DNA from: Sarea resinae
Lineage: Eukaryota
Direction: 5' to 3'
Assembly: GCA_026026165.1 (NCBI GenBank)
Contig: JAPEUD010000026.1
Coordinates: 62,001-126,000 of the forward strand
DNA: 64,000 nucleotides
This document shows positions 21,361 through 43,066 of the stretch, in pieces. Below the pieces are notes generated by a model that saw only the letters and a list, made by a program, of their open reading frames with translations, was not told the origin of the DNA and searched no databases. Made by a program: the position numbers and the translations under genes. The first letter of the stretch is position 1. Each line of letters opens with the position of its first letter.

Positions 21361-21761
21361 TGTTAAGAATTATAACCTTGATTCTAGTCAATCTTAAGTA
21401 TCTAGACTGTTACAGACTGTTATAGGACAGGATAGATACATCTAGAAGCTTCTACACACCTATAGAAGCTAATAGAATGTACTTGTAGACCCCTATAGAA
21501 TCTTATAGAACTTATATAACATAAGAGTTATATAACTATCCTCTGACTTTCTTACAAAGCATATGTTATTATTAGTTTATTGCTTACAAATCACTTATGT
21601 AATTAGTTATCACTAGAAGTTTCTAGTAGGTTAGTTAAGCCTATATATTGACTGCCTCACACCTTTATAGCTAAAACCTCTAAGTTAATAATATACAATT
21701 ATTCTATCCTATACTTCTTTAGCACCTTCCTCTACCTATATCTATGTGCTACCTTCTAACA
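21361..21761 (+). repeat. 5' LTR of Ty1/Copia element
   Basis: Starts TGTTAAGAA and ends TTCTAACA (short inverted termini). Immediately followed by GGTTATAAGCC, the RIP form of the fungal Copia primer-binding site GGTTATGAGCC. Its last ~70 bp recur at 41289-41360. Confidence 0.75.
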
Positions 21762-22469
21762 GGTTATAAGCCTTGTTAGCCTGCTAAAGAAGCCTCTCCT
21801 CCTATAATTTCGTGATTTTTTCACCTATAGCCACTAAAATTCCTTTGAAAAAGAGTTAACTTCCTCTCTTTCACCTAAAAAGACTAGGTCCTATACCTAG
21901 TAGTCTTTATAGTCCCTAGCTAGTTAATTATATAGCTTCTTAGAGACTATATAACTTAACTTACAGATAAGAACTACTTAGAGTAGACTGCTTAAACTAA
22001 GCCTATACTAATAGACATTGTATATACACACACTTAATAAGGATTTTCCTAATCCTTTCTGCTACCTTATAGGTATAATCCTCTTTAAAGAGAAACACCT
22101 ATAGGAGAGCAAGTTACATGCTTAATGTATGCTGCCTTTACCTAGATCCTATAGTACCTATAGCTTGTGTCTATAGAACTATAGCATAGCAGCTTGTGTT
22201 CTGCAAAGCAGCCTTTGTGCCGCAATTTTACGCACCTATAGAACTGTAACAGTTTAAAAGTCACAAAACAGCCTTTGTGTTTACCTTTTATACATCTATA
22301 AAACTTATAACAATAGTGCAAAAGCATAAGACACTCTTTATACAGCTGTTTCACACATCTATAGAAACTTCTATAGGTGTATAAAAGTTATACTAGTGTG
22401 ATTCTACTACTTGCAGTAGAATAAACTTAATAGCTAGTAGTCTATTTCTTTGAAATCAAGTAAGAGACT

Positions 22470-22847
22470 AGTAATTATAGCTATATCTAATCCTATATAT
22501 AAGACTAAGCTATAAGGCAGCTCTAACTAGGATTTATAGTCTATAAGGATAGAATCCCTGCTTATAGAGAAGGGCTATTTTAAAGTTATGTCTAAAGACT
22601 CTAATAATAGTATAGATTTAGATTCAGACTATTTTAGGGCAAAATCTGCAAAAGCTCTAGCCTATATTAGGCTTGCCCTAGCAGATAGCCTACTATTACA
22701 GACTAGATATTATATTAGTAGATCTATAAAAATTGTAGGCTAGTCTGTAATATCTCTATGAATCTAAGGGATTTAATTCTAAATTCCTAATTTAGAGAGA
22801 GTTGTTTAGTACAACACTTAAAAAATATAAGGATCTAAGAGACTATT
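22470..22847 (+). pseudogene. Copia gag N-terminal part (RIP-inactivated)
   Basis: Reads KL*GSSN*DL*SIRIESLLIEKGY...AKALAYIRLALADSLLLQTR...LYESKGFNSKFLI*RELFSTTL; de-RIP approximates KLQGSSNWDLWSIRMES...GPLLQ...GFSSEFL, typical of fungal Copia gag. Confidence 0.75.
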
Positions 22848-23399
22848 TAAGTGCCTCTAGGACTATTTCTAACACAGTTATAAGACAGTCTTAACATTGT
22901 AACAGTGTGTTTAAAACCTTTTATAAGTGTTTGTAGAGTAGCTGCTCTAACTAGATTTATTAATCTAATAGTTTTGCAGATAAGGCTTATAGACTAGATA
23001 AGGCTAGTCTAGTAACCTATTAACTAATAGTGTGTTAGTAGAATAATAACTAACCTAACTTAAGTAATCTATTATAATCTAATATATGACTAGAGGTCTA
23101 TAGATACTAATTAAATAATATATAGCTATAGCACTTTAGGTAATAATAAAAGGTAATAATAAAAGTAAGAGAAATATAAGATAATAGAAGTAATAGTAAT
23201 AAGGTTACTTTTCTACTATATAGTAGATAGTGTATTCTAATAGAAATATAGATACAATCTTAATAGTAGCTAGATCTAAATTATATAAGAGGCCTACTTA
23301 ACTAGAATTAGTATCTTATCTATTTATATCTAGTGTAGTCTTCTAACTACTTAAGAACCTAATTTATCCTTTAATAAGCTTAGGTTATATAAAGAGTTA

Positions 23400-24580
23400 T
23401 AATTTTTAGAGATAGTAGCACTATATTAGCGTTCCTTACCTTAATGTTTTTTAAGTAGGCTTAGGCTGCCTTTACTTACTACTATCTTCTCTCTTACTAA
23501 TATAGCAATTCTTAGTAACCTTACTATTATAATTTTTACTATTAAAGGTATTCCTTATCTTATTAGCACTTATATCTTTTATTAGACTTTGTTATAAGAG
23601 GATATAGCGTTTATAGTAGCAAATTATTATTAGGCTCTAAATTGTATTAGAGTTTAAGTTGCTTTAGTAATAGTAAATAATATTGCATGTAATATTAAAG
23701 CATTACTTAACTCTAACTGCTAAGACTAGAGCTACTAGAATATCTCTTACTACTTACTTAATAGTTAGGAGTTTAACTATAAAGTGTTACTAGAACTAAT
23801 TCTAAGTTAGTAAGTTTAAAGCGTTATAATATTTTATTACTTACTTTAAGTAGTGTTTAATAAGTAGTAGAGAAGATAGGTATAGAAAGGTATCTTATAG
23901 CCTTAGTAAGTTTTCTATTCTATACTATAGACTTCTACTAATCTATAAAAGCAAGTGAATTAAAGGTTAGATAAAGAGGTATTAGTATTAGAGTAATATA
24001 TAGAGTGCTACTCTTAAATTTCTAGTAGTTAGCTCTATAATACTATAGAAACTATTACTAATACTTCTTTATATAAGTTGCGCTCTAGTCTAGACTTTAG
24101 AAGAGTAGAAGAGAGAAGTTAGTAATATTACTATAAGTGTTATAAGATAGTATTACTTTATATATATTAAGTTTTTACTTTAGGTCTAGAATATAGGTAA
24201 GACTATATAGCTCTTTACTACTATCTGTTGTTATACTATAGTATTTGCTTAGGTAAGATAGTAAAGCCTTAATTACTTTACTAAGGCTTTATTTCTATAG
24301 AATATCTTTCTTTAAAAGCTAAGCCTTTTAAGACTTAAAGTAATTAAAGAGTTTTCTATATATAAACTAAGTAAGATAAATTATAACTCTACTAGTTATA
24401 GAAAAGGCTTTAGTCTACACTTTAAATAATTGTAGAATAGTAATTAGATATTCTACTTACTTCTACTTAGTATTATTTAATTAAAGTTTTTTAGTGATCT
24501 AAGATAATTCTTTGCTTTAAACTAGCTTATTAATTGCATATTATAGTACTAAAGCATAGGTAAGCATATTAAATGTTAAG
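23400..24580 (-). pseudogene. hAT transposase C-terminal fragment with dimerization domain (RIP-inactivated)
   Basis: Minus strand ~23630-23810 reads F**HF...VVRDILVALVLAVRVK*CFNITCNIIYYY*SNLNSNTI*SLII, approximately ARDILAVPVSAVGVERCFNIARDIIHYRRSNLNPDTIRSLM (hAT C-terminal dimerization motif). Confidence 0.8.
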
Positions 24581-24949
24581 TTCTATTAGTAAAAAAAGAA
24601 GAGGTCTATATAGATATAGTGTAGATATATAGTATATAGTACTAGTTCTATATAGATAGTAGTGCTACAGTATATCTACAGCGTTATATAGCGATATTAT
24701 AGTATATATACTTGTCTACTAGTAGATATAAAGGTAAATACATCTCTATATAGATATATATTGTCTTCTATATACTTATTATTAGGTTATATATAGTAGA
24801 TACTTATTATAATATCTCTATAGAACTTATATATACTATCTGTACTATATAGTGTCTACTAACAGCTATATAATATTAGGCAGTTGATTTTGTACTACAT
24901 AAGCTACATAAGCTATATAAGCTACACTAGAACTTCTATTAACTTCTGA

Positions 24950-27900
24950 AATCTATTTAGTAAAGTATGTTTTCTAGTTAATATATTTGTTTACTAAGAA
25001 ACGTTCTTTATAATCTAAGCTGTTAGAAGGTATCTTAATTATATAACTTAGCCCTATTATATCTTTAACGTGTATAATACACTCCTTATTAGTTATTAGA
25101 TAGCCTTTACTATAAGTAGCTATGTTATCTAACCTTTTAACAATAGATAGACAATATATTATATTCTAACTCTCTAGTTATTTAGCTTATACCTAAGTGA
25201 TTAAAGCTAGTAATATTAGAGCAAACTCTAGCATAGTAAGACTAAATAGAAATTAATATTAAGCTAATAGATAGGTGCTAACTAGCGCCTATCTATTAGC
25301 TATACTATGTCTCTCTAGATAGTATATATTGTCTTTTACCTAAACCTAATTGTTTCTCCTACTTACACTCTGCTATAATGTTGTATATTAGATAGTCAAC
25401 TCTAATATATCCTTATAGTTGTTATTTGCCTCTTAGAAACACATTGTAGAAGATGCTCTATCTATAAGCTAGCTACTTATATATAAGTTTAATGTCTGCT
25501 AGTTAATATTTAGCTAACTGTATTTGCTAAACAACGTTTTAACAAACATTAGCAAGGCGATTGTAAAGTCTAGTAGACCTAGTTTCATAATTTGTTCTAA
25601 TAATTGCAATAGATATCTATTAAAACCTTTAAAGATAGGCAATCTAGTATTTAATGTCTGTACTATATTAGGAGATAACAGCCTCTCTATAGCTATCTTA
25701 CACGCCTTAAAATAGAAACGTTAGTTATAGTATTTTAATATCTATAGAGTAGTATGTTAATAATTTAATACTTGCTAGCCTAACTTTATTGTTGTTTAGT
25801 AGAGAGCCTCTAAACAGTTAGTAGAGAAGCTATAAAGAGACCTAAATTATCTGATTATAGATATATAGTGACTAATAATATGTATCTTAGAGAAGTTAAA
25901 ATATGCATCTGCTTTTAGAGCCTCTTCTCTTATACAATCTCTTAGCTACTATATACTGTCTTCTCTTCTCTAACCCTTATTAGAATATGCACTATGTTTT
26001 TGCTTTTGCTTTCTATTAGCTGTTAGCTAAGAAGCTCTTTGTAAAGCTCTTTATAACGCTGCAGTATGTGCTGTTTAGGATGCTAAGCGCGCTATAGCTA
26101 CTGTTCCTTTATTAGTATAAAATCTCTAGAAAATAGCTTTGTGTTTATAGAAGACACCTAGTAGAAAGTCTATACACTTAAGGGTTTTATTGTTATAAGT
26201 ATACAGTTATATAAAGAAGATAAAGTTAATAAAGGACTGTATATATGTTATTGCTTGCTTAAAATCCTAGTGCTGTTATACAGATAGATTCGCTAATAAT
26301 ATAGCTGTAATAAGGACTAGGAATTTCACTACATTCTGCATTTCTTTCTTTTACTACTATAATATCTAGAGATAGGTCTTAGTTAGCAGACTAAAAATTA
26401 GATACACTAGTATTACAGTCTATAGAGAGTTAAAGGTATCTAATTATTTATATAGAAGTAGGAATGCTGCTAGCTAGTTTAGAAGGTGCTATAGCATACC
26501 TATATAAACTTAATACAGTAGATCTAGTTTTAGCAGATTGTAGACGTTAACACCTAGTAGAAACTAGAGGCTATTAAGTGTCTTTTTAACACCTTTCTAC
26601 TCTAGCATTTATATGTTACTCTCTTTTAGAAGTTGCTAGTAGTTTGCTAAGTCTCTTACTATCTAGTTATTATCTTCTAGACAACAACTAAAGTCAGCCT
26701 ATAGATATTTATATACTAGATAGTGGCCTTATATAATACTATATATTATAACAATCTCTTTATAGTTAGCTACCTACCTAGCAAGCTGTAGAAAACAATT
26801 CTAGGTATAACTATCTGTGTATAGTATCTGTATACTATCCTCTCCTAGCTTTTTAAGTGTCTAAAGAGCCTAATCTAGTCTATTATAGTATAGTTAATAA
26901 TAATAATTCTGCTCTTAAACGTTATTTGCTTTAATTCGCTTTAGATAAACTAGTAAGAGACCTAAGAGAATAGTCGCTTATAATAAAGGTTTAGCTTAAA
27001 GCGTGCTTAGTAAGTTACTAATTATAAGATATATTAGCTATATATGCTTGTCGCCTAAGAAATTAGTCAGATAAGTTTTATTAGATGCATAAATTACTAG
27101 GACTAGTGTTGAGTTTTTAGGCAGTGTATTCTAGTAGATAGTTAGCACTATATCTAATACTAGATAAGTGTAATTTGTATACCTAAGTCTGCTACTACTA
27201 ATTCCTAGTATATATATCTAAGTATAGTTAAGTATTCTATTCTCTATACAATTTTACAGGCAAATATACAAGCGCCTCTTTAAACTGTAGGTGTCTAAGT
27301 AGAAACAAAATACATCTTAAGAGATCTTTAAGATACATCTGTATCTTCTTATTATAATACTCTAAGAAAGATATTTCTTCCTATTCTCTACCTAGTGTTC
27401 TAAGTATAGTTAATATCCTATCTAATTTTTAACGCAGAGTATATACAGATTAGAAACTAGAGTAGTCTTATCCTATAATGTTGTTATTAAAGAACTTATT
27501 AATTGTAGTTAAAGTGATATTGTTCTATAGAAACTACTACACTAGTCTATAGTCTTTAGCAGTATTAAACAGCGCTTAAGATTAACTAAAGTATATGTTA
27601 TGTCTTTTATTTAATTGATTAGGCAATTTATATAGTTTGCCTGCTAATAGATAAGCTATTAACTAGATAGCTATAAGCTTTGCTAGCAATTGTATATATA
27701 GTGTAGTCTTATAAGCTACTCTATCTAATAACTAACTACTATTATAATCTAGTTAATCTTTAGCGTAGTTAATATTTGTCCTGCTATAGATATCTGCTAG
27801 AATGTCGCAGTTAGTGTAGCTATTAGTGTTGTTATTAATTGTAGAGCTAATATCTGCTGTTTTACCTTAGTGTCTGTTGCGTTTCTTAAACAACAGTAGA

Positions 27901-27974
27901 TTATAGCGTCTTATATATAAAGTCAACTGTAGAGAGTGCGTTGTATTATAACTACATATATAGCATTTTAACAT
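24950..27974 (-). pseudogene. Plavaka-family transposase (RIP-inactivated)
   Basis: N-terminal C2H2-like MLKCYIC...LTLYIRRY; FNTAKDYRLV**F; TLVLVIYASNKTYLTNFLGDKHI*LIYLIISNL at ~27020-27110 (de-RIP ASDKTHLTNFSGDKxAWPIYLTIGNL); YTDSYT*NCFLQLAR*VANYKE at ~26760-26830 (CxDGxxRxCFPxLAxWxADYxE); LKLDLLY*VYIGML*H at ~26490-26540 (KPDLLHQxYIGM). Confidence 0.88.
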
Positions 27975-28238
27975 TGTAATATCCTCTAGTAGTTGTTGCT
28001 ATACATGTAATAGTGTAGGTAATTGCTTTACACGTTATATTTATAGAGGTAAGTTTAAAAGTCTAAAGAGTGACTAAGTTATTAGTTAGGTGATATTAGT
28101 GTTAGTATATAAGCAACCTATACGTTTATACTAATGTAGGTAGATAAGGCAGTGATTTCTGTTTCTACATATATATTAATTAACACACACCTTTATATTA
28201 AGCTTATATTAGGATAGGACTTCCTAAGCACAATTATT

Positions 28239-30060
28239 ATGTCGCTCTTACCTAGAAAAAGCATAAACTCTAGCAGACCTATATAGTACTACTAATTCTA
28301 TAAGATTAGCACCTTACTAACTAGAGAGACTTAGTAGAGAAAAGCACCTTGTTAGCTAACTACTAGTAGCCTTTATTATCTACTCTCTAGTCCTTTAAAC
28401 TAACTGTCTAGGCAATCTAAACAATTGTCTTATTGTTAGTTGTTAGATGTATATTATACTCTTAATCTAATAAATAAAAGCAAGGTAGTATTACAACGTT
28501 ATATAAAACGCATTACAAGTTAGCATAAGATATATAACACTGTCTAAGTAAGAGCTAAACAAGTTAATAATTTAATTAGAGATATAATCTAGTAGGTAGA
28601 CTTCTCTTTAGCCCTAGCAGATTACTTTAGACAATAACTTTAAGAATAGGCAGATTGTTAGGAATACTTATACGTTGTTATCTAAGATTATTGTAAAAAG
28701 AAGCGAGATTAAGAGAAGAGAGAACGTAGTCCTCTTATAGCAGACAGTGATACAACTAATAATAATAATAGAGAAGGTAAAGATAATAGTAGTACACTAC
28801 TATCTACTAGCGCAGTAGAAATATTAACTTCTAGTATAAAGACTCTAACTAGTAAGTAATATCTAATACCTATTTAATATCTATATCCTTATATACTAGA
28901 TAGTTAAACGTTATATTATCTAGGATATATACTATAGAGAGAACGCCTTTAAATCCTAGATACATTCTCTTCTATCCTTTTTAATAGAATCTGTCTAATA
29001 AGTCGTTAGACGCTATATACCTAGCTATAAGATAGTTTAGATAGACTTAGACATTAACTACTAGACGTTTTAGATTAAATACAATAGTGAGCTAGAGTCT
29101 GCCTTTAAACTTTTTCTAGAAGAAACTATACGTTTAAAAATTATAAGTATAGCCTGTAACATAACACTATAACTATTTAATAACATATGTCTAGATAACT
29201 AGACTATCTTTACTTAAGAGATAATTGTCTACTAATTGTTATTATCTAGCATCTCTAAAGAGATATATGTCTGTATAAAACCTAATAAACAAACAGATTG
29301 CAGAAATTTACGATTTAGAAGAAGAGCAAGCAGATAGTATATCACTTAATTGTAGGATTAGACCTAAACTAATAACGTAGGACTCCTATCCTACTAAGTA
29401 CCTCTTATTACTAGCCCTAAATATGCAAGCAAAAGTAGTCTGCCTTAGAAGAGGCTATTATCTTGCTACCTAAGTAGTAGTAAGTAGATATACTATATAT
29501 GTCTATTAGATATTACTAAGAGATAACTGTTGTTATATATCAGACAAAATTCCTATCTGCTCTGCTAATAAGATTATATACACAGACAAATACAGTATAC
29601 TAGAAAGACTAAAGAGGTGCTCTTATTATTGTGTATTAGATAGTTTGATTAATTACAACAAGTATATCTAGCGTGATAATAAAAGCATCTCTATAACATG
29701 TAACTATAGTAAGACAGTAGGCGTTTAGCAGAAGCTTTCTCTAGTCCTTAGTAAAGAAACCTAATTGTCTACTGCACCTTCTTTAGAGGCAGTTATATAA
29801 CGTTCTATTATGTAAACTATATATTAGTGTCTGTTTTAGGTCTATTATATTATCTATATAACAAAAGTCGACTAATAGATAACACTATACACTAGTCTAA
29901 ATATCTAATTAGCTTTGCATAGTAGGTTAGCTACTCTAATTAGTGTTTAAGTGATTTAAAGACCTGCTTTAGCTAAAGATACAGATAAATTTACTAATAA
30001 ACTAGACTTAATTTGTATACAAATAAGATAATCTACTAATTGTATTAGTTATTAATCTGC
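28239..30060 (+). pseudogene. Plavaka cargo/accessory gene 2, unknown product, divergent from the transposase
   Basis: ATG at ~28239; long codon-like stretches whose stops are TAA/TAG; GT...AG intron-like segments (~28596-28649, ~28852-28900); no family recognised. Confidence 0.4.
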
Positions 30061-30649
30061 TCCTATATAGTACTATATACTCTAGTCTATTATTAAGGAC
30101 TACTATAGCACAATATTATAGTAAGGTACTCTTAAGTATATTTGTATATCTCTTAGTATGCTATTATACAGTAGCTATATAAATCTAAGTAGACTGTAAC
30201 TACCTACTACGTTATAGTCTAAGATATACCTAGGTAGGTACTATATCTACTACAGTACCTTACCTACTTAACTACCTACTATATAGTAGTACACTACTTA
30301 TCTATTGCATAATATAAGGTAGTGCCTCTAATGTGTGTTATATGTATATAGCAGCTATTAGCTAAAATACAGATTTTATATGTAGTGTTACTCTACTATT
30401 CTTACTCTACCTCTTTATTTAATATTAAAATGCTAGATATACTACAGTTAATACTCTATTATAAGACTCTATCTTAACATTATATTAGCAGACAGTTCAC
30501 TTAAGTAGTAGACTAACTATTAGACTTTTATCACTAAGTAGACACTATACAAGTAGTGCTGCTATTTATATTGCTTTAACCTTACTCCTACACTAATAGC
30601 TGTCTAAAACACAAGCAAACTATTATCTATATAATATATTGTATATTAG

Positions 30650-31195
30650 ATATAATATTAGTTAGAGGTGCAATGTTACGCACTAGATATACTAATAGTA
30701 TTAAGTGCTAATAGCTAGAAATAGTTGATAATAGCAACGTTTCTTTGTCTTCTTTCTTACACGTTATAATGTTATTATTCTTTGTTCTATTTAGTTAGAT
30801 CTCTATTCACTTTATATCTCTATTTACCTCTACTACTTTTATTCGCTGCTGCTACTCTTATTCACCTTGCACTGTGCTAACGTGTTATTTATCTAATATT
30901 AAAGCTATAAAACCCCTACTACCTAGTCTAGCCTGATTAAGAATTCCTACTAGATACAACCTTACTTTATTACTAATTTAGATAATTGTTCTATTAAGAT
31001 ATTAACTTTATCTCTAGCCTTATTAGCTCTCTACTTATATTCTCTTATGTTTTTATCTTTTAGCTTATTATATCTCTCTTAGTCTAGCAGCCTAATTATT
31101 CTTATTATACTAAACTTAAGTTTAGTGCTATACTTTTAGCCTTAATCACTTTCTACTTATTCTCTCTACTAGTTATCTCTCTACCTCTTAACATG
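30650..31195 (-). pseudogene. Plavaka cargo gene 3, coiled-coil-like small protein
   Basis: Minus strand is purine-rich and reads e.g. ERYNKLKDKNIREYK*RANKARDKVNILIEQLSKL, with an intron-like GTAAGG...TAG segment. Confidence 0.3.
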
Positions 31196-32464
31196 TTATA
31201 ACAATCTAGCTAAGTAAGCTACTCTCTTATTATACAACAGATATAACTAATAAGAGATATAATAGGATATAGTTTGTCGACTAGAATAAGAGATAGTTGT
31301 AAGACCTAATCCTTAAGTATAAGAACTTATAAAAGAGAAGCTATTAGAAGCGTACCTAAATCTAGGTGTTATATTAAACAAAGCTAAGACTAGATTATAA
31401 GAGGCTATCTAGTAAGTATTATCTAACTATAGCTGCACTAACCTTTAAGCAGCAGAAAATCATGCAGTTAACACTATAATAGAGGATGTAATACAGTCTA
31501 CTAACTTTCTAATGCTATCTGCAGACTAAATTAGAAGATAAGCTGCTAGATAGAGCTACAATTAAGAACACCTATTTATTATTGTGCAAGATATCTGTAA
31601 GAAGCTATAAGACAATATAAAGAAAGAACTGCAATCTAAAAGTAGAACCTTACTATTGCTCTTATCTAACACCTCTAGTACTTTAGCTACCCCTTGCTAG
31701 CTAGCTCTCTCTTAGTAGAAAGCTACTAAACAGACATTATAGCAGCTTATAGAGATATCTATAAGTAAGAGACATATAATTATATTAATTAAATAGCACT
31801 TACTAATAGCTAACAGACATTTAATATAACTCTAATACCCTTCTACCTAGTAGCCTTACTACTCTCTATACACTAATACCTTCTTATCTACTAACTATCT
31901 ATATAGCACCTCCTTCTATAAGACTACTAATAGGTAAGAGGTATATATGTTTATCTATTAACTAACATTTGCTAACAGTTAATAGACAACTAACTAGCTA
32001 AATAGTATATAACAATAGATAATAAGATAAGCACCTAACTTTTCCTACTGTTATCTCTAACTATAGATAGTATCTGTAATATTATTGCTAGGTTTATCCT
32101 ATAAGCAGCGATTATTAACAAGATTAAAACAAATATAGAGAGAGAGAAAATTAGATTAGAATACAATAAAGAGGTTGTACTAGTACTTAAGTTAGGCCTA
32201 TAACTAATTGTATTCTATATTGTAAGTGTCTCCTTATAAGAGTACATTGATTTCTAGTTGTTAACCTTATATAGGATGTAAAACGTAGAAACCTTAAGCA
32301 GGCTAGTAACAACTTAGTTTCTATACAGATAAGACCTAGACTAGGTATATACACTGTCTGCTATAAGGTATTATATCTAGTCCTAATATAGTTATTAACT
32401 GTCTAGTGCAACAGACTGTTTAATTATCTAACTAGAGACATATTATACAAACCTAAATGCAATA

Positions 32465-32895
32465 AAACTAAATACTACTTTACTCTCTACTACTAAGACT
32501 AGCTAACACCTACTAAAAGGTTAGTTGTTAGGCCTTGCAGCGAGTGTTAGCTAGTCTAGTAGCACACCTAAGTTGTTGTTACCTCTGCTATAGAAAACTT
32601 AATAACTGTCTAAGAGTTAGTTGCTAGGCTTATCTAAGAGTTAGTTACTAGACTTATCTAATAGTTAGTTACTAAGCTTATCTAATAGTTAGTTGCTAGG
32701 CTTATCTAAGAGTTAGTTGCTAGGCTTATCTACAAATAAATTGCTAGTTATAGATCTAAGACAGAGCTGTTTACTAATAACACTAAATACAACCTTACTC
32801 TCTACTACTAAGACTAGCTAACACCTACTAAAGAGTTAGTTGCTAGGCCTTATAGCAAGCGTTAGTTAGTCTAGTAGCACACCTAAGTTATTACT
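32465..32895 (+). repeat. Internal ~110-bp direct duplication enclosing about five 24-bp tandem units
   Basis: ACTAAATAC..TTACTCTCTACTACTAAGACTAGCTAACACCTACTAAA...AGCACACCTAAGTT at ~32468 and ~32782; GAGTTAGTTGCTAGGCTTATCTAA-type units at ~32614-32735. Confidence 0.85.
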
Positions 32896-33220
32896 ATATT
32901 AGCTAAAGGAAACACAACGTCTGTCACTAGTTCCTAAGCTAGGTCGCTATAACGTTAAGTGTAAGCTACTAGACTTAAACGCAGTACTATTTCTTATTAC
33001 TATAGAGCTAACTCTTTATAGACCTATCACTGCAAATTAAAGATAACATTTCTAATAAGCTTATATATAACCTAATAAGAGATAAGGCTAATAAAGAAGA
33101 CATTAATAGTAAGGATACTAATAAAGAGGACGTTAAGGATAAAGATAACAACAAAGATAACATTAATAACAATAATAGCAACAAAGATAACGTTAATAAC
33201 AAGGATTATCTACCTGTTAA

Positions 33221-33375
33221 AAACAATAATCTGCTGCCTAATAATCCTCTAAATAACAATCTGCTACCTAATAATCCTCTAAATAACAATCTGCTACCTA
33301 ATAATACTCTATATAATAATCTACTACCTAATAATACTCTATATAATAATCTGCTACCTAACAATTATCTATATA
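33221..33375 (+). repeat. 30-bp tandem repeat, about 5 units (acidic/proline-rich coding repeat before RIP)
   Basis: AATAACAATCTGCTACCTAATAATCCTCTA-type units; unit length is a multiple of 3, and de-RIP reading approximates DDDLPPDDPL. Confidence 0.85.
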
Positions 33376-33479
33376 GCACAGAACATTATCTGCCTAGTAA
33401 GTACTAGGATAATAAGTAACAACCTCTACTAACTTTTATCCTTACTTTATAGGCCTCTAAGACTTTAGTGCTTTTGCTA

Positions 33480-35760
33480 GCAGATAGTATAACGAATTAG
33501 AGAGAGTAGATAACCTAATTAAGAGAATAAACCTAGTGATAGCGAAACGCTAAACAGTTATTTAAAATAGTCTAGCAATTTAACATAACACACTCTAAAT
33601 ATAGAAGGATATAACAGCTATATTCTTTATTCCTAAACACACTGTATTAACAACCTAAATACCTATAAAGCTACTGTTTCTTTAAGCACCTATTTAACTA
33701 CTACTATATTAAGCTACAGCTATTATGTTTATATTACGCAATAAAAGCAACAGAATTAGAGAGGGGTTTTTAGCAGATAGGATAGGGTTTAGAAAGGTGC
33801 GTGTCTATTATAGTGTCTCTTTAATATGTACTTAAATTAATAGCTAACGCTTAATCTACTAGCAGACACTAATAACGTTAGCTTTTATTACTACTTTATA
33901 GACCTTATACTATAATCACTTAGATATAATAAAGAGTTAGCAAATCTATAACAAAAGATATCTAAGGGCTAGTAGTAGGTATTATCTGCATAAGACTTTA
34001 AATATTATATGATATTTTACTTACACTTGTGTTTATTAGACAATATAGATAACAATACTAAATGCAGCGTTAAGTGTCCTAGTAACAACCCTTATAAGAT
34101 ATAATGCCTGTGTTAACTAGGATCTATAACCTCTTAAATCACTATAGATAAGAGAGCAAATATAGTTATATGCCTAGCATATCTTACCTGTATATAGGTG
34201 ATAGAATACTAAAAGTTGTTCACTATATAATAGATTGCTAAGAACCTAATAGTTCTTAAGCACAGCTAATAGAAACATAAGTTTACAGACTTAATAGAAA
34301 CAGACTCTAGTAGCAAACATATAAGATTAAATGTTATCCTAGTGACATTGTTTAAGTGTTTGCAACTTTGCTGCAATTTATAGGCAGAAACTTAATTTTA
34401 GCAGATAGTAGTAGACAAGGCGCATATTATTAAATTAAAGAACACTAACCTAATCTAAGACCTAACTACCTTAAGACAAAGCTATAAGGAACACTAGCCT
34501 ATAATGTAGTTCCTCTCTAGCACTCTATTTGTTATGCCTAGAGACTTAAGAGAGAAGGTAAACATTCTTATATATACCTAATAGATAACTAATCTCTCTT
34601 GCGTTAGATAAAAATGCTTGCCTAAAAAGTTAGACTTTATTAAAAGTTAGTACAAAAATCTATTTAATTGTATAGCAAAACCTAACAGACTATGACTGCC
34701 TTCTACTAATAAAGACTTTAATTAATATGCCTAGAATTTTGTTAGCTTCCTTAGTGTGCTAATAATCTAATAGGATAAAAATGTAGTTAACCTAGATAGC
34801 TACCTGCTAATTAACCTCCTGCTATTCTACAGATATAAATTGTTAGTCTAGTTTAGTAATAACTGCTAGAAGACAGTATATAAACAACAGCAAGCTATTA
34901 TAGTAGTAAGAACAAACTAAATTCTAGAGTTAAATAAAGGATAATGTATTACTTTAATAATATATTTCTAATACGTATAGCGACTACAAATTATCTTTTT
35001 ATTCCTAGGCCTTGCCTACTCTAATCTAGCTAGGTTAGACTAGAGCTTATTAAGCGTTAGGTCTATAGCTACTAAGGATTAGGAATTATATCTGTTATAT
35101 AACAATCTAAAAATACTTAGCTAGTTATCCTCTAAATTAAAAGTACTAGATAATCTTATTAATAATATAGGAGTGAATTTAAGGATAGAGAGTGAAAAGA
35201 TAGTTATCTTTATTGTATTCCTAATTACAGCCTTTATTATTGCAATAGTAAGTAGCATTTGTCTACTAGATAACACACTTAAGCTAATAGTAGATATATA
35301 GTAGATAAAATATGTTAGATACAAGCTAGTTACTCTATTCTATAGCGGAATCTCTATAGCAAAGCGCTTAAGGTTAGTAGAACAATTCTAAGGCACTATA
35401 GATATATTCTCTAGCTTAGAACCTTTTTACTTAGTTAGGACAATAGGTATAATATCACTAGGCTTAACCTTAATTCGCGCAAATCTAGTAGTTGTCTTTA
35501 AATCTAATTATATAGACACTCTTAAGTAATAAGCACTTAATAGTGTTCACTATATTAGCTAGTGTAGCAAGGTAAGTTTATATTGATTTATTAACACTAA
35601 GTCTGCAATTAAGAATACACTTATAGCTACTTAGAGGTTAAGAGGTATCCTAAATAACATAGCCTTAAAGAAGAATAATCTGCTAGTTCTGCTACAAGTT
35701 AAAGTTAAGATTAGCAGTAAAGATAATATAGATACTAAAGATAACAACCTCTACTATTAA
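33480..35760 (+). pseudogene. SNF2/SWI2-family ATPase carried inside the Plavaka element (RIP-inactivated); N-terminus may extend to ~31460
   Basis: Motif I RGFLADRIGFRK (~33760-33800, GGFLADGMGFGK, then a GTGCGT intron); Ia ICLAYLTCI*VIE (~34170, ICPAHL..W..E); II *QIVVDKAHIIK (~34400-34435, WxIVVDEAH); III M*FLSSTLF (~34503, WFLSGTPF); IV KIVIFIVF (~35197); V ISLGLTLIRANLVVVFK (~35455); VI **ALNSVHYIS* (~35527, QAxxRVHRIGQ). Confidence 0.85.
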
Positions 35761-35899
35761 CTCTACAATATATAAAGGAGATAAAGACAAATAGGACATG
35801 TAATAAACACAGCTAATATAAGTTTTTATTTGATTATAGGCGACTTTATAATACTAAGAGCAGCAGATATATATATCTGCTACTCTTAAGACTATTATC

Positions 35900-38575
35900 G
35901 CCTACTCTTCTACTATACTCTGTTCTAGCAGCCTAGTAAAGATTGCAGCAATAGTTAGTTCTAAACTATAAGTGTCTTCTAGATAACTTTAACAAGGTAT
36001 AGAAGCTAACATCTGCTAATCTACTTTAAGTTAGTCTCTTTTATTCTGTTTAGTGTTGTTTTAATTAGTCTAAGCATGCACAAATCTAAATTAATTATAT
36101 AAGTTGTCTTAATAGCAATATAATTGTCTGTTAATTTGCAAAGATATAATTTAAGTGATAATACTTATCTCTACTTAGACTAACAATTCTCTCTCTCTTT
36201 AAATTCCTATTTAACGCTAATATCTCCTACGCACTAAACTCTTAGCTATCTAAATCTGCTCTATATAGAGAAGCTAGTAACTTTTACAATGCCTTCTAAA
36301 TAACTCTAGACTTATTCCTAGCAAGATATTTAGTCTGCTAAGGAATAAAAACTCAACTACTTTACTAATAGTAACGCTTGTTTCTGTCTCTACTTATCTA
36401 ATCTATGCTAAACAAAGCAGTTGCCTTCTGTAATACTTGCACTTAATAAAAGACTACTACTAAAGGACTAAACATAGTTTAGATCTAGTAATTGCTACTA
36501 CTACTCCTTTAGTCTAAGAGCAACTATAGCTAATGTTATTAGATAGCAATAAAGAGAATTATAAGCAAGCTACAATGTCTCTAATATAAAGCCTACCTAG
36601 TTAGTTATCTAATGTTAGCGCTATATCTGCTGCTAAAAACACAGAAGATAGTAATAATTTACTTAATCTAATAACACAAAATACACCTACTTAGAGAAGA
36701 GGATATTAGTTAGACAGCACTAAGGGTCTAGAAAGTCAACTTATACTAGCAACTCTTAATAGCTAGATAAGTATACTAATAGATAAAGAAGTATCTAGAC
36801 GCAATTGTCTGCCTAGAAAGAATCTAAATAAATAAGAGTGTCTTTATATAATAAGAAGATAAATAACAAGCCTTAAGCTAAATTATATTAAAGTGAACTT
36901 AGTTAATTATAGAGAGAGTACACTAATAGGCAGACAATATATATCTAATAACACCTAGGCTACCTTATACTTAGTAGAATAGCAACAAATAAGTAGTAAA
37001 GTAAATTAAACTATAAGAGAATCACCTATAAGATTCTAAGATCTTCTAATAGATAGACGTCCTATATATAGGTCTACTACTAGTTAGAAGGCAGCAAAAC
37101 AAACTAACTAAAGAGATATCCTTTAGAAGCCTAACCTTTTTAACAGACAACTACTAGAAGAGCTTTATATATAGGATCTATTAATAAACACTTTCTAGAA
37201 CAAATTGTTAATACTACCTCTACTATTATTAGCAAGTCTTACTCTTAGAGTACTTGTTTTTAATTTTACTTATAGATAATAGGTTCTAAGTAATAACAAA
37301 GGACTCTTATTCTCTAGTCTCTATTCTAAAGCAGTTAGTATTAACTTAGACTCTACCTCTACACATGTTTTTAATAAGATAGATACACTAAGAACACTAC
37401 ACTAATTGTCTAGCACTCTATAGATGTTTATAAATAATTAGAGTGTAGGTTTAAGTCAGCTTTCTACACTAGATATAAGAGCATATATAAAGGTTTAAGC
37501 GTATTTAAAAGAGTGCTATCTGCGTTATAGGTATTAGGATATTTATCTAATAGCTAAGGCAATAATAAAAATATATGTTATTACTTAAGACTCTTTCCTA
37601 AAAAGCAATAATATAGCTACTATCTATACTAACACATAGGACTAGGCTTATACAAAGGCAAAGGCAATTAAGATAGAGCATTAATTTCCTTATCCTATTA
37701 AGGACTCTAGATAATACAAAATAGAGCTGCCTATATATATTAAACCTATAGTAAGTAAGACTATTAAGTGATATTTCTACTATCTACCTACTAACTCTAA
37801 ATAATTAAATCTTATTAGCTATTAATTAGAATAAGCTAGTAATAAAGATATATTATATTATAGTGTTATTAACTAGTAGTAGACCTATATAATCTGCCTC
37901 TTACTAAACTAGAACAACTTAAGAGGAAAGTAAGTTAACTATTAGATTAAGATAGTTTTAACTATTAAGATATATCTATCTATATATAAATCTCTTTACT
38001 TGTTTTAGTTATCTAATAGTTTTTAGAGAAGGAAAGAGAGATTATTCTACCTAGTAATTACATGTGTTATACTTAAAGAGTTCTTTAATAAAGTCTAGAA
38101 ACTAGCAAATATTAGTTATATATTAGATGCTTTTAAATAGATCACCTATTAGCTAATATATATTGTATCTACTACACTTTATTACACTCTCTCTAAATAG
38201 AAAGAAAGAAGCTTTACTTCTTAAGATTTTACTAAGGATAGTGTAAGTAGTAAGTAACTAGCTAGATATAATAGCTAATAGATAATATAACAGCTAACAA
38301 ACACCTAGAGGTCTACTAGCACTAGGTAGCTACTTAGAATTTTCTAAGCAGTTAGCAGCAAGAGGCTATCCTTCTACTAATAAAGAAAGCTATTAATAAT
38401 AGCAATACTTTAAATCTTAGAAAAGTCTACATTCTAATAGAAGGGTTCTGTAATAATAGAGGAGAGAATCTAGAGGATCTAGGCCTATTACTTAAAGAAC
38501 AAGTTAAATTACAAACCTAATTAGCTAGAGCAGATACTAAGTAGTATATTAATAGTTTACATTATTATTAACTAA
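35900..38575 (+). pseudogene. Plavaka cargo gene 5 (one or more genes), unknown product
   Basis: About 2.7 kb of codon-like, RIP-riddled sequence (e.g. LLALGSYLEFSKQLAARGYP at ~38315-38372) with intron-like segments; family not recognised by eye. Confidence 0.35.
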
Positions 38576-39136
38576 CTAACCTATTCTCCTAGTTAGTAGA
38601 TTCGCTGTATAATTAACACTATTTTTCGCACTATATAGACTCTATATAATAAGTTATCTATGCTATATAGTAGCTACTAAAATACATGTGTATTCTGTAT
38701 TTATTAGTAATACAGTAGGTGTCTACATGTATTTTATCTAATCTCTAGAGATTAGTAAGTATAACTACTAGAATCTACTATAGTCTACTAGTAGGTAAAA
38801 GAATAGTTATGTAGTTAACACTAATATATTGTGTAGAAGATATACAAAGTCAGTGTATTCTATATAGTACTACAGTAGCTGCTACCTAAACTACTATACA
38901 TGTAGCGCTATAGCGTTAACTGTTTGTAACATAGGTAACATAGGTTACACAGCGCACCTGTAGTCACTTGTAGCACACCTCTCTTTTTACTAATATATAT
39001 AAAATTCAAGCAGTCTTAAACCTAGAGTAATTATAGTAGGTTTAAGACTATTGTTACACTATCACCTAATCCTAACACAGTATCAAGGGTTTGTAACAGT
39101 CTTAAACTAGGTACAGAATTACCTAACCTAGCACTA

Positions 39137-40056
39137 AGGTTATTAGTATAGGTCTCTTTAGCAGTGATACTACCTCTATTATCTAGGATAAGGACATTTT
39201 TAGGGCTAAAGTTAGTAACTTTATAGCACTTGTTTATAATTGCCTCTAGAGATAGTAGGTAAACACTAAAGTTAAGGATGTATAGGACATCTCTAATATT
39301 AACTACCTAATTTGTTAGGGTAAATATTAGCTTAAAATCCTCTATACCTACTGCTATAGTAGAACTAGTAGTGTTACCCTACTTTATAGTAGTACTATAG
39401 GGTCTAAGATTGTTGAAAAGTTCTCCTCTATAGCAGATATATGTTGTTGCACCTAAGTTAAGAATCCACTCTATAACAGTGCATTTTAGCTTGAGTTTTA
39501 TACAGCTATAGAAAGCTTTAGGTGTAACAGTGCCTTTTTATAGCTTTATAACAGTACCTCGTAGGACTATACTTGTAACAGTGCATTCTAACACTAATTT
39601 AGGGCAGCTATAGGAATCTAAGCTTGTAACAGTGCATTTTAACACTGATTTAGGATATCTATAGAAATTAGAGCTTGTAGCTATAAAGCTCTTTTCCTCT
39701 TATAGTTCCTATGCTGTAGAAGAGTTAGTACTATGCTTTTTAGCATTAGGCTTATTACTCTTAGAGGTAAGAGCTACCTCTGTATCCTTGCTAGTGCTAT
39801 AACTATTAGCACTAGTGCTAGTGCTCTTAGAGACCTTAAACCTCTTAGAGTTATCTATTAGCTATGCAAAGACTTTCTCTAGGTTAATATCTTTGTCTTT
39901 ACTTTTATTAATTGTTTATATAATAATAGTAACTATATTACCTTTATAGTTACTAGTAAAGTTTTTTAGGTTCTATAGAGCTATAAATTTGTCAGGCAGA
40001 ATTAGTTCTCTAGCCCTTAGCTTATTATTTAGCTGCTTGATTTTCATAATATACCT
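39137..40056 (-). pseudogene. Copia gag C-terminal part and protease, inverted relative to the 5' LTR
   Basis: Minus strand YIMKIKQLNNKLRARELILPDKFIAL*NLKNL...VTIII*TI...DINLEKVFA*LID; EWILNLGATTYIC at ~39435-39474 (WILDSGATTHIC, Copia protease); RDVLYILNFSVYLLSL (DVLHIPDFGVNLLS). Confidence 0.85.
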
Positions 40057-41288
40057 TATAGCTAACTCTAGGATTTCTAACACAGTCTTACAACTGTTGT
40101 GACACCTAGTAGAACCCCCTATAGTGCGAAATTCCTAAACAGTGTTAAAACTATGTTGAGACTGTTACAATACCTACTATAGGTTGCAGGATTACTATTA
40201 GTCGCAGAATTACTATTAGTTGCAGAGGTTCAGAACTACCCTTAGTTGCGACTGACTTTTGCACACCTATAAAAGTTGCAGAAAAAAAAGTGGGAAAATT
40301 CAGAAAATTTAGCGAAAAAGTAAATTGACTACAGTGGGAATCGATCCTAGAAGCATTATGTAATCAATGATTGACATTACACTAACTAAGTTATATGACT
40401 TGTTAGAAAATCTAGCCCTAGAGTGCTATATAGCCTATAGAACCCATAATATTATTTTGATATAGAGATTTTCAAAATTTTAACCACCTATTGTAAGTGA
40501 GACGTTCGACTATTTTTGCGTATATTATGTAATTGCTTACATAATATTTGCAAAAATCGTTGAACGTCTCAAATATTTTTCAACTTTTACCTACTAGCAA
40601 GAAAATTATATTTATTTTTACTAAGTCAAAATTGTGTAGCAGAACTTCTAACCTATACACTGTTACAGACCTATAGGTGCACCTAATTAGGTTGCAACAT
40701 CTTATATAGGTTACAATGCCTTATATAGGTTCAAATCACTAGTAGGTTACAAGAATTTTAAACCCTTAGGCAGTATATATTCCTTGCCTAGTTGCAGAAC
40801 TTCTGAACCACGTACTGTTACAAACCTATAGGTGTACTAAAGCTGGTTGCAACACCCTATATTGGTTCTAATTAGTAGTAGGTTGCAAAAAATCAACAGG
40901 TTTCAAAAATTAGAAAAGTTTAGCACTATTCTAAAACCTATAGGATGTTTTACACACCTAGGCTAGCATATAGGTTAGATTGAACAGATTAGAGGCTGTA
41001 TTCACTAACCCTATGTGGGTTTCTAGAGTGAACAGATTATAGATATAAAATCTAATCTAGTAGTAAATTAGATTAAGTTTTCCTTAGCACTACTATATAT
41101 AATCTCACAGTTAATAGAAATATATATAAGTTAGTGTTATAGAATTTACACCTAGAAAAGGTTTAACACTGTTACAAGACCTAAAAAAAGTTTAACACTG
41201 TTACAACACCTATAGAAGGTTTTAGAACTATTAATACTGTTATACAACAGTCTTAAACTAGTCACAGGATATACTCTCTAGGCACCTA
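40057..41288. mobile_element. Non-autonomous ~1.2 kb element with hAT-like ends related to those at 22848/39136
   Basis: Left end CTCTAGGATTTCTAACACAGT resembles 22855-22878. Right end AACAGTCTTAAACTAGTCACAGG...CTAGGCACCTA resembles 39096-39136 and is an imperfect ~85-bp inverted copy of 22847-22932. Many ACACTGTTACA and GGTTGCA subterminal repeats; no ORF. Confidence 0.55.
40498..40571. repeat. Long hairpin: 35-bp arms, 4-nt loop
   Basis: TGAGACGTTCGACTATTTTTGCGTATATTATGTAA-TTGC-TTACATAATATTTGCAAAAATCGTTGAACGTCTCA; 4 mismatches between the arms. Confidence 0.9.
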
Positions 41289-41360
41289 AGTATATAATTA
41301 TTCTATACTATACTTCTTTAGCACCTTTCTCTACCTATATCTTTGTACTACCTTCTAATA
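41289..41360 (+). repeat. 3'-terminal fragment of the Copia LTR
   Basis: TATAATTATTCTATACTATACTTCTTTAGCACCTTTCTCTACCTATATCTTTGTACTACCTTCTAATA matches 21694-21761. Confidence 0.85.
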
Positions 41361-43066
41361 AGTATTAAGGCTGTTAGGTCTTAAAATTTAAAGGTTAATT
41401 ACTACTATATATAGAGTGCTAATAAGAGAGTAGTAGAAGCCTCTAATAGTGTAAGTATATAGAGCACCTATAGTTACTTGTTAGAACTTAGTAGTGTATT
41501 AATCTTTTGTTAATATAGCTAGACTTATAGCTGTATATAATATATTATTTATTTTATTAGCAGGATACTTATTAAATTAAGTGGAATATATTATAGAGCA
41601 TACTTATAGACCTAAATAACCTTTAGTATTTCTAAAGTTCTAGCTTTGATAGTCTATGCTATTATAGTATTAGATTACATTAAATCTTACTTTAGCACTA
41701 CTACTATATATATCTATTACTTCTAGTCCTAAGGCCTTTCTTTTCTTTCTATTATAGACAATTAAATTATTAAGTTTCACATACTAAAAAGCATTTAGTT
41801 AGAACCAGCAATTAACCTAGCTCTATGTTAAAGACTTCGATGCAGTGCGGAGTTCCTAAATGTCCTAAAGGAGGGCTGTTTACTAAGGTCTCGGGTTCGC
41901 ACCCGACTACAGGCCTGATGAGGTATGCATCTATCCGCAGTTGAGGGGTAGTTCTGAATCCACTGTATCAGATGTGTGCCTATAAAGTGACTGTGCGGTG
42001 CTGGAACGGTTTGCATGGTATCGATGCCGCCGGTCTCATCGACTCGGTCGGTGAGCCAATCAAGGACTCGAACCCGGAGAGGAGGTCTCCAGCCTTTGCG
42101 GCATTGGGAACCGAGCAGGGAGCTCCGGTGTCGACGCCATCCTGGAGGCTGTCACGAGCGCCGCAAGCCAGCCAGCCGTTTTTACTTCGGTCAATCCCAC
42201 TGGGCCGAAGACGTATTCGCAGGTCCTCACTGGAGAGAACGTTGAGGAACCTGGGGGATTTCAACTCGACTGCCGTCATTAGTCGACAGGTTTTTGGTTC
42301 GAAGAGCGCAACGACTGCGATAACAGGTCTGGCATATTTTGTGCAGAGTGGGAAGTATAAGCTGCCTGCCGAGCTCGAGTTCTGATCTTTGAAAGGGTTT
42401 CGACACCATTGAGCAGAGCTTTAATAAGCTTATGAAAGGTGTCAGTGACACAGTATAGAGTAAGGTTGTAGTCATGGAGCATGCAGTCTGGCCTTGGATT
42501 GTTGGACTTGGCAGGACGTGCAGCTTGCGTAGAGACTGAAGCCGAACCAACGTTTCTTGATGCATGGTCTGTTCCCACGTTTGTGTGAGTGACCGCTGCC
42601 CCAACGTTTTGTTGCCTGATGGACGCGAGTTTGAGCATCGACTCTGTGTACGCAGAGTCACGGATTCCCTATCTAAGTCAATTATCGCCTTGGAAATGAG
42701 GCTCAAGCAAATCTTCCGCTTGTGGCCTCGGAATCCCCAAAGCTTGGTTGTGCAGCTTTCGGTGATTATGGAACCACTCCCGCATTACTGAAGAATCGAA
42801 CTTCATCAGCTGCTTGCACTGGCTGAAAGAGCGGACACAGTAGCCGGTGCTGATTTCATGGTGGACCCCGGAATCCGAATGCCGTAGAAATAAGCGCCGG
42901 GCTGGCGTTGGAGCCGAGAACTTAGCAGGTCAGCGGGACGACATGCCTGCACGCTCTCGCAGCCCATTTCTGGAGCATATGCAACCCGACCATGATTTAG
43001 AAGCCCAATAACCGGTAAAGAAGAGATGATCTTGTTGTAGCATCTGTCTTATAGGAGCATAAGATG

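Follow-up and report, generated by a model that had tools for sequence, protein, structure and literature searches.

Among transposons of the Plavaka group, the closest match to the element described here is found in the PlavakaB families of Agaricomycotina, a lineage that is placed in the CACTA/EnSpm-Mirage-Chapaev-Transib (CMCT) clade. According to the available parts of the paper that describes them (Kojima 2025, PMC12730594), PlavakaB elements have termini of the form 5'-CATCA..TGATG-3' and 2-3-bp target-site duplications (TSDs), and two families in its supplement, Plavaka-11_AB and PlavakaB-1_GaAu, both open with CATCAGCAAAA. In the same source, Plavaka transposases are recognizably similar to EnSpm transposases, and all Plavaka elements carrying a TET gene are PlavakaB, i.e., their passengers are aimed at chromatin or DNA marks. 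The link between fungal Plavaka elements and TET/JBP, cited in an initial annotation of our locus, is in print. Giant Plavaka-lineage elements (17.4-19.1 kb) have also been reported from the red alga Bostrychia (bioRxiv 10.1101/2025.02.11.637652). These have a cassette of DNA- or chromatin-directed accessory genes (an N6-adenine methylase with SET, a ParB with 2OG-oxygenase, and one unknown); in the available text, SNF2 is named for host gene families only. Plavaka-group elements of the ascomycete Tuber (Pezizomycotina) have short terminal inverted repeats (TIRs) with the motif 5'-CATAC-3', whereas the corresponding motif in our element is CATCA, and 2-bp TSDs; an SNF2 passenger is not mentioned in the available sections of that paper (PMC12581995).

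We analyzed a 64,000-nucleotide stretch of a Sarea resinae contig, referred to below as the window. The 14,412-bp span at 24584-38995 is, we think fairly probably, one dead 14.4-kb copy of a PlavakaB-lineage cut-and-paste transposon, with an SNF2-family ATPase among its cargo. In size it is comparable with large PlavakaB elements, one family in the PMC12730594 supplement running to at least 12,836 characters. The span has a GC content of 0.29, is heavily mutated by RIP, and lies within an AT-rich block of the same GC content (about 21000-42000), i.e., a fungal repeat island. TpA/ApT was 1.73 in this block versus 0.73 in the left flank, and (CpA+TpG)/(ApC+GpT) was 0.54 versus 1.21. In 1-kb windows the RIP indices were even over 24584-38995, as the initial annotation had claimed, and stops now fill every reading frame of the element. 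Whereas the PlavakaB families in the available parts of PMC12730594 are from mushrooms, the host here has classical CpA-targeted RIP.

The left TIR (24584-24605, plus strand) reads TATTAGTAAAAAAAGAAGAGGT, and the right TIR (38977-38995, minus strand) reads TATTAGTAAAAAGAGAGGT in reverse complement. The repeat is imperfect, with indels, and comprises GAGGT in addition to 12 exact letters. Taken alone, it is within chance expectation. In the AT-rich block, 277 pairs of exact inverted 12-mers are separated by more than 1 kb, and the terminal pair is absent from the 25 longest among 365 inverted pairs. Scanning with the terminal pattern gave 12 matches in total, not far from the 6.8 expected by chance; a third exact match lay at 21345, and matches with one mismatch lay at 30356 (+) and 32768 (-). 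Two observations nevertheless make the repeat convincing: with RIP undone it is the same as the published PlavakaB terminus, and run X1 contigs representing other copies break at 24591, 38997, and 39001. Thus, TATTAGTAAAA(A) is present in inverted orientation at both ends of the element, and TATTAGTAAAA is the C-to-T (RIP) form of CATCAGCAAAA with no other difference, making the terminus identical to that in the PlavakaB supplement over 11 nt once the C-to-T changes are undone. Similarly, the termini TATTA..TAATA differ from CATCA..TGATG by RIP-type C>T and G>A changes only. One run X1 contig, with another flank, has kept CATCAGC directly before 24591. The boundaries that the initial annotation had drawn from matching TIRs therefore hold, by virtue of the PlavakaB terminus and the contig breaks, although the repeat that suggested them is no better than chance; the un-RIPed form is CATCAGC, of PlavakaB type, rather than the CA(C/T)TAG type that had been proposed. 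Subterminal repeat arrays had also been noted, and short tandem arrays were found near both ends: at 24604-24663 (period 23, 2.8 copies) and 24895-24926 (period 9, 3.6 copies) on the left, and at 38765-38791 (period 10) and 38926-38949 (period 9) on the right.

On the minus strand, the Pfam Plavaka profile (PF18759) matched 26480-27124 with an E-value of 3.4e-17 (63.1 bits; cut-off 26.3), and a second frame in the adjoining exon matched with an E-value of 0.017. The resulting domain relic (26480-27356) has two exons, covering profile positions 40-98 (27356-27186) and 105-322 (27124-26480) of 325. Their frames are joined in phase 0 by a 52-nt spliceosomal intron (27131-27182; GT..gCTAAC..TAG), called by inspection of the sequence and frame arithmetic from the PF18759 matches. 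The relic of the full transposase gene probably covers 25000-28400, where the minus frames have the fewest stops, the family match being restricted to 26480-27356. Together with the family-specific termini, the 63-bit match identifies a Plavaka-clade DNA transposon that shares its transposase family with PlavakaB, in agreement with the minus-strand Plavaka transposase relic of the initial annotation.

No 2- or 3-bp TSD, as described for PlavakaB, was found for the copy in the window, which is flanked by GTTC on the left and TATA on the right; in this one copy, TTC and TAT are irreconcilable with such a duplication even when RIP transitions are allowed. The sequence to the right of the element belongs to another transposon, with a copia-type Pol_BBD match (E = 5e-9) at 39226-39468, and self-comparison revealed no similarity between flanks and interior.

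Two other assignments were considered and rejected. Classical CACTA/EnSpm elements are likewise DDE cut-and-paste transposons with subterminal arrays and multiple genes. However, they have CACTA (CAC..GTG) termini, a 3-bp TSD, and Transposase_21/23/24, whereas our element has CATCA-type termini, no TSD, and no Pfam match to Transposase_21/23/24 in six frames. Starships and large KDZ elements (e.g., KDZ1-3 of Cryptococcus) are also large fungal mobile elements with extra reading frames but, in the descriptions available, have other transposase families and other termini. We found no tyrosine-recombinase captain (DUF3435) in six frames of 20900-42100, a DDE transposase with TIRs being present instead, and no KDZ domain in the element; the distinction from Starships drawn by the initial annotation was therefore upheld.

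To assess copies elsewhere in the genome, 5834 contig pieces of run X1 were placed on 22300-42200. Summed contig depth was 6270-10051 (mean about 7700) in all 22 bins inside or straddling the element, i.e., about 20 times the 351 of a single-copy flank bin, summed word depth not being equivalent to copy number. Very roughly, the family amounts to 15-25 copy equivalents. Differences between the window and other copies were nearly all transitions (A>G 214, T>C 217, C>T 224, G>A 237, with 5-22 transversions of each kind). The direction of the transitions was symmetric (431 versus 461), and all copies appear similarly mutated. Among the joints listed (15 of 24), none had both sides within the element, although one exits from inside it (38406 to 40959). 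The even summed depth and the lack of any listed joint wholly inside the element indicate that the cargo multiplied with it, bearing out the view that the whole unit was multicopy.

These data also bear on whether there is a discrete element at all, or only a segmentally duplicated mosaic of repeat fragments in which the TIR is a chance match. Summed depth of about 8000 continues across 22964-24583; with no drop over these 1.6 kb, it does not mark the left end at 24584. This would fit a mosaic, as would the many inverted 12-mer pairs in the block, the additional exact copy of the terminal pattern at 21345, and the absent TSD. However, depth rises to 14600-25328 directly right of the element, other copies switch flanks at the three contig breaks, and the flanks do not resemble the interior. 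Above that, an 11-nt, published, family-specific terminus occurs at both ends, allowing for RIP, with a Plavaka transposase between them, and we give the mosaic very little credence.

SNF2 ATPases have in their N-lobe a motif I of the form LADxMGLGKT and a motif II of the form DExH. Evidence from a motif scan and from matches to solved structures suggests that a plus-strand relic at 33770-35652 is probably an SNF2-family ATPase. The scan, whose RIP-tolerant patterns were composed after inspection of the sequence, yielded a motif I-like string, LADRIGFRKV (33770-33799), which ends in K-V instead of K-T/S and was found once in the six-frame translation of all 64 kb. A motif II-like string, IVVDKAH (34405-34425), followed 600 nt downstream, likewise on the plus strand. 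For the putative helicase C-lobe (35287-35652), the part of SNF2 proteins that bears motifs IV-VI, all nine matches to solved structures were to SNF2 remodelers (INO80, ISWI, or CHD1 C-lobes) at homologous positions, with weak E-values (0.25-1.3). In the C-lobe alignment, five of seven in-frame stops were opposite Q, Q, Q, Q, and R, and their codons (TAA, TAA, TAA, TAG, and TGA) are each a single C-to-T step from CAA, CAG, or CGA.

If this likeness were spurious, 33.7-35.7 kb would represent another gene or none, and the element would be a transposase plus unknown sequence. Consistent with that, not one E-value was strong, Pfam SNF2_N and Helicase_C (the HMMER check suggested in the initial annotation) were undetected in the region even at E-values up to 10, phmmer against 1.84 billion representative proteins and a word-based sequence search returned no match for the relic, and the N-lobe frames gave no SNF2 match among solved structures. 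Yet eight control queries in the solved-structure search produced five matches, none of them to SNF2, whereas the relic matched one family nine times out of nine. The stops opposite Q or R, and the collinearity, on one strand, of the C-lobe stretch with the two motif-like strings, also argue against a spurious likeness, which we regard as very unlikely. The SNF2 ATPase relic of the initial annotation is thus backed by weak but coherent structural matches and motifs, and not by Pfam.

It is also conceivable that a Plavaka element gained the SNF2 region before amplification, by capture of a host gene or through a nested mobile element, the ATPase being a passive passenger or a pseudogene of no use to the transposon. 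Most of the interior is without an assignable family or function, and the SNF2 relic is too decayed to tell whether it was intact at amplification. A nested helicase element can be envisaged because AcademH, KolobokH, and Helitron, according to the descriptions available, are helicase-bearing DNA transposons of other superfamilies. However, depth in the SNF2 bins (6270-7132) equaled that in the transposase bins (6480-7676), so that summed depth gave no sign of copies lacking the SNF2 segment, which the initial annotation had named as evidence against its proposal. None of the listed joints (15 of 24) and none of the listed loose ends (18 of 187) fell at about 32-36 kb. Around the SNF2 segment, no second pair of PlavakaB-type termini was found, the candidates at 30356 and 32768 each having a mismatch, and no long inverted or direct repeats bracket it in self-comparison. 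We therefore consider a composite origin unlikely.

With the SNF2 segment taken as original cargo, a mechanism can be proposed by analogy with the transposase family. The minus-strand gene, with one intron or more, would have encoded a DDE transposase that bound the short subterminal repeats together with the CATCAGCAAAA termini, cut out the whole unit, and reinserted it elsewhere. The cargo would have comprised several plus-strand genes, one of them for the SNF2-family ATPase, and the family would have amplified before RIP hit all copies. Judging from the accessory genes of other Plavaka elements, the SNF2 protein would most likely be an element-encoded chromatin module, which may open or de-repress chromatin at copies of the element or at its target sites. 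More tentatively, and we would not put this above a possibility, a PlavakaB element of a RIP-active ascomycete carried an SNF2 remodeler that, together with a DUF6532-like protein, and with the internal tandem arrays perhaps serving for recruitment, formed a self-encoded module for chromatin access or anti-silencing. If true, chromatin-directed accessory cassettes of Plavaka elements would comprise three independent kinds, the other two being the TET/JBP of mushrooms and the methylase-SET/ParB-oxygenase of red algae. An SNF2-type ATPase passenger seems to be undescribed so far in the Plavaka group, and we found no report of one in the literature searched.

The passenger here would also differ from that of TET-bearing PlavakaB elements (PMC12730594), which carry TET/JBP. 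No Tet_JBP match was obtained in six frames at E-values up to 1 (up to 0.1 for the plus frames of 33600-36901), a weak negative because Pfam likewise missed the SNF2 relic. None of the Bostrychia accessory genes given in the available text was detected. The initial annotation had envisaged about three further intron-containing gene relics, but the interior yielded only a weak DUF6532-like match, and the sole verified intron lies in the transposase. This match (38054-38251, plus strand; E = 0.039-0.069, 13.5-14.3 bits against a cut-off of 24) may belong to the relic of a plus-strand gene, lying in a stop-poor frame at about 36250-38300. One or more plus-strand gene relics may also occupy 28400-32460, where successive plus frames have fewer stops (29050-31300); there was no Pfam match on either strand of this region and no match of its three plus frames to solved structures. 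Finally, self-comparison and a repeat scan revealed internal tandem arrays at 32461-33375. A 24-nt unit is repeated 5.2 times at 32609-32732, within a duplicated block of about 200 nt (32461-32656 and 32776-32977, 79%), and a 15/30-nt unit is repeated at 33088-33375. As in the Bostrychia elements (10.1101/2025.02.11.637652, in the text available), these arrays adjoin a putative accessory gene.

The element at window positions 24584-38995 lies within an AT-rich block that is bordered on both sides by ordinary fungal genes. At window positions 1-21000 and 42001-64000, GC content was about 0.49 and dinucleotide ratios were normal; in the block at 21000-42000, GC was 0.29-0.32, TpA/ApT 1.72-1.74 and (CpA+TpG)/(ApC+GpT) 0.54-0.67, values that classically mark repeat-induced point mutation (RIP, C-to-T) at CpA. 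RIP has inactivated the element, and its indices were uniform in 1-kb steps from 24584 to 38995, as the initial annotation had claimed for the cargo. The left border of the block is an Alg9-like glycosyltransferase gene ending at ~21150, and the right border is an intact-looking gene for an LSD1-type histone demethylase (SWIRM, amine oxidase and HMG box; 43067-46462, minus strand, in two open stretches). Other flanking genes encode Sec1, a ubiquitin hydrolase, dynamitin, an alcohol dehydrogenase and a DEAD-box helicase. The repeat island looks like an insertion hotspot, since it sits between two housekeeping genes, i.e., the Alg9-like and LSD1-type genes.

When all six frames of 20900-42100 were scanned with Pfam, reading stops as X, the sole strong match inside the element was to Plavaka (PF18759; E = 3.4e-17, 63.1 bits, cut-off 26.3), bearing out the proposal of a Plavaka transposase relic on the minus strand. 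The main part of this DDE transposase match, at 27124-26480 (minus strand), covers profile positions 105-322 of 325, and a second frame at 27356-27186 (minus strand) covers positions 40-98. Between them lies a 52-nt intron (27182-27131, minus strand) that starts with GT, holds gCTAAC and ends with TAG. Because this intron joins the two frames exactly in phase, the relic represents a spliced fungal gene; the suggestion that the element held intron-containing gene relics therefore stands for the transposase gene.

The sequence is TATTAGTAAAAAAAGAAGAGGT at the left end of the element (24584) and, in reverse complement, TATTAGTAAAAAGAGAGGT at the right end (38995). As had been proposed, these inverted termini bound 14,412 bp; they have 12 exact letters and GAGGT in common, with small indels, and there are short tandem arrays near both ends, in agreement with the subterminal repeat arrays noted before. 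Taken alone, the terminal inverted repeat is no evidence, because exact inverted 12-mer pairs separated by >1 kb number 277 in the AT-rich block and the terminal pair is absent from the 25 longest among 365 inverted pairs. What makes it convincing is its agreement with published termini, together with the ends of other copies. PlavakaB families end 5'-CATCA..TGATG-3' and have 2- or 3-bp duplications (Kojima 2025, PMC12730594), and in the supplement to that paper Plavaka-11_AB and PlavakaB-1_GaAu both start with CATCAGCAAAA. The window terminus, TATTAGTAAAA, differs from CATCAGCAAAA at three C positions only, each of which is T, as expected from RIP. In X1, a public sequencing run whose contigs represent further copies, one contig has CATCAGC immediately before 24591 and a different sequence on the other side, and two more contigs, among the joints listed, depart from the element at 38997 and 39001. 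The termini are thus those of the family and, as judged by sequence comparison, the ancestral terminus is CATCAGC, rather than the CA(C/T)TAG of the initial annotation, which was wrong in this detail. A CACTA terminus was also considered, as "CACTA" precedes CATCAGC in the other X1 copy, and was rejected for want of a match at either end in the window. No target-site duplication was found in this single copy, the flanks (TTC / TAT) being irreconcilable even when transitions are allowed, and we class the element with PlavakaB, this defining feature being absent from the one copy.

A third exact match to a RIP-tolerant PlavakaB terminal pattern, TATTAGCAAAAA, occurs at 21345-21356 (plus strand). 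It is followed by GTGTGTTA, resembling the GTGTGCTA that lies behind the right terminus, and has a one-mismatch partner on the opposite strand at 23533-23544. We rejected 21345 as the true left end of the element, because 21000-24583 is unlike the interior and the flank changes at 24591 in the X1 contig. The site at 21345-21356 may be the end of another Plavaka-type element, unrelated or non-autonomous.

The whole unit was amplified. X1 contains 62% of the words sampled from 24000-33999, and alignment of its contigs to 22300-42200 at 80% likeness yielded 5834 pieces, with 2286 at ≥99% likeness, 1991 at 95-99%, 1297 at 90-95% and 260 at <90%. Summed word depth was 6270-10051 (mean ~7700) across all 22 bins covering the element, and the SNF2 bins (6270-7132) equalled the transposase bins (6480-7676), as expected if, as had been claimed, the entire unit was multicopy. 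A bin from a single-copy flank contig had a depth of 351, and individual X1 pieces among those listed had depths of ~350-465. Although summed word depth is not copy number, these values correspond, very roughly, to a family of 15-25 copy equivalents, spread evenly over the unit. None of the 15 joints listed (of 24 in total) had both sides inside the element; among those listed, one departed from 38406 and three were ≤7 nt from its two ends. Similarly, none of the six X1 rows listed had a loose end inside the element (18 of 187 rows for X1-X3 are listed). On the right flank, depth rose sharply to 14600-25328. The left end is unmarked by depth, since a value of ~8000 persists for 1.6 kb beyond 24584; self-comparison revealed no similarity between this 1.6-kb stretch and the element interior, and it probably belongs to another, similarly abundant repeat.

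Where the X1 pieces differed from the window, transitions dominated (A>G 214, T>C 217, C>T 224, G>A 237; 5-22 for each kind of transversion), so that the copies differ from one another by RIP-type changes. The symmetry of these changes (431 vs 461) suggests that the remaining copies are as mutated as the window copy. Runs X2 and X3, from other organisms in the same study, yielded just 5-6 short pieces, mostly with <90% likeness, and gave no sign of the element.

The proposed SNF2 ATPase on the plus strand, at ~33.7-35.7 kb, was harder to recover. Pfam did not find SNF2_N or Helicase_C, even at E values up to 10, and with the relic as query there was no match in a word-based search of longer proteins, nor with phmmer against 1.84 billion representative proteins. 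The Plavaka relic likewise had no match when longer proteins were searched by words. RIP has probably destroyed words and scores, so that empty searches of this size, with either the SNF2 or the Plavaka relic, tell little. We also used the read-through frame 34300-35700 as a phmmer query against solved structures, a much smaller set. All nine matches were to SNF2 remodelers (INO80, ISWI, CHD1), with E values of 0.25-1.3, and query residues 330-451 aligned with the homologous C-lobe of these proteins. Of the seven in-frame stops in the best alignment (INO80), four face Q, one faces R, and the other two face L and E. The five that face Q or R (TAA, TAA, TAA, TAG and TGA) could each arise by a single C-to-T change from CAA, CAG or CGA. 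Eight control read-through queries from the element gave five matches altogether, none of them to SNF2. In the same kind of search, frames for the N-lobe found no SNF2, and frames at 28.5-31.8, 33.3-34.5 and 35.6-38.9 kb gave nothing useful.

When the 64 kb were scanned in six frames with RIP-tolerant patterns, which were composed after viewing the translation, a single motif I-like string was found, LADRIGFRKV (33770-33799, plus strand). For motif II the scan gave a similar string, IVVDKAH (34405-34425, plus strand), the only other match being in the intact DEAD-box gene at 4147. The motif I-like and motif II-like strings are collinear with the C-lobe stretch on the plus strand. Thus, although Pfam recognized neither domain, the nine structural matches and the collinear motif-like strings uphold the claim in part, and the relic is a probable SNF2 ATPase.

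Elsewhere in the interior, 28.4-32.4 kb had no family match, either by Pfam on both strands or in the solved-structure searches. Apart from Plavaka, the six-frame Pfam scan of 20900-42100 matched only a Pol_BBD in the flank and, weakly, DUF6532 (38054-38251, plus strand; E = 0.039-0.069, under the cut-off). One paper groups DUF6532 with KDZ, Plavaka and CxC2 as domains that co-vary across fungal genomes, which might serve as a lead. In the six frames, Pfam gave no match to Tet_JBP, SET, methylase, ParB or tyrosine-recombinase domains; these are weak blanks because the same method missed the SNF2 relic. Tandem arrays at 32461-32977 and 33088-33375 (5.2 copies of a 24-nt unit, a duplicated 200-nt block and units of 15/30 nt) lie immediately upstream of the SNF2 relic. 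In red-algal Plavaka elements of 17-19 kb, tandem arrays likewise adjoin accessory genes, there encoding methylase-SET and ParB-oxygenase proteins.

Taking the element as a single PlavakaB unit that includes SNF2 is the reading we favor, with moderate confidence. Its movement would, as in the family, be cut-and-paste with 2-3 bp duplications. By analogy with TET/JBP, present in fungal PlavakaB elements (Kojima 2025, PMC12730594), and with the red-algal accessory genes and their adjacent arrays, the SNF2 ATPase may have helped the element by opening chromatin or lifting its repression, and was perhaps brought to the internal arrays. Accessory genes are already known from giant Plavaka elements, and Plavaka elements have been reported from the ascomycete Tuber; what distinguishes this element is its putative SNF2 passenger. 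Full-text literature searches yielded no account of a Plavaka or CACTA-type element with an SNF2 gene, though an earlier mention may exist, and the words "snf2" and "helicase" were absent from the portion of the Kojima 2025 supplementary file (PMC12730594) covered. Plavaka and related giant DNA transposons recurrently acquire DNA-mark or chromatin genes, among which an ATP-dependent remodeler would, if real, be a mechanistically different tool, and would suggest that reaching, or escaping from, silent chromatin is a general selective pressure on the clade. The element was found in a genome strongly affected by RIP, in which it is invisible to gene callers; since the copy is dead its value is as a pointer, and the idea would become testable with intact relatives from fungi whose RIP is weak.

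Directly to the right of the element is a copia-type Pol_BBD relic (PF22936; 39226-39468, minus strand; E = 5e-9). Its summed contig depth was 2-3 times that of the element, which identifies it as a separate, more abundant retrotransposon family. Close to both outer margins of the AT-rich block, 21692-21779 and 41291-41377 form a direct repeat of 88 nt (87.5% identity), and 41291 is the site of a loose end in five X1 contigs. The two repeat copies may be what is left of the LTRs of a retrotransposon split by the Plavaka element; the block minus the element, ~6.6 kb, is the reason for thinking that the element may have landed in one. That it split a copia retrotransposon was left unconfirmed, as Pfam found no pol domains in the left flank. 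Both flanks are also strewn with short motifs of the TGTTACAG / CACCTATAG type, direct and inverted (21380-21500, 22232-22400, 39000-39110 and 40600-41230), examples being the inverted pair 22232-22266 / 40646-40680 (80%) and a 29-nt tandem unit at 41148-41222. Many X1 joints run between opposite strands, from 22.8-22.9 kb to 39.5-41.0 kb. These motifs constitute a repeat family.
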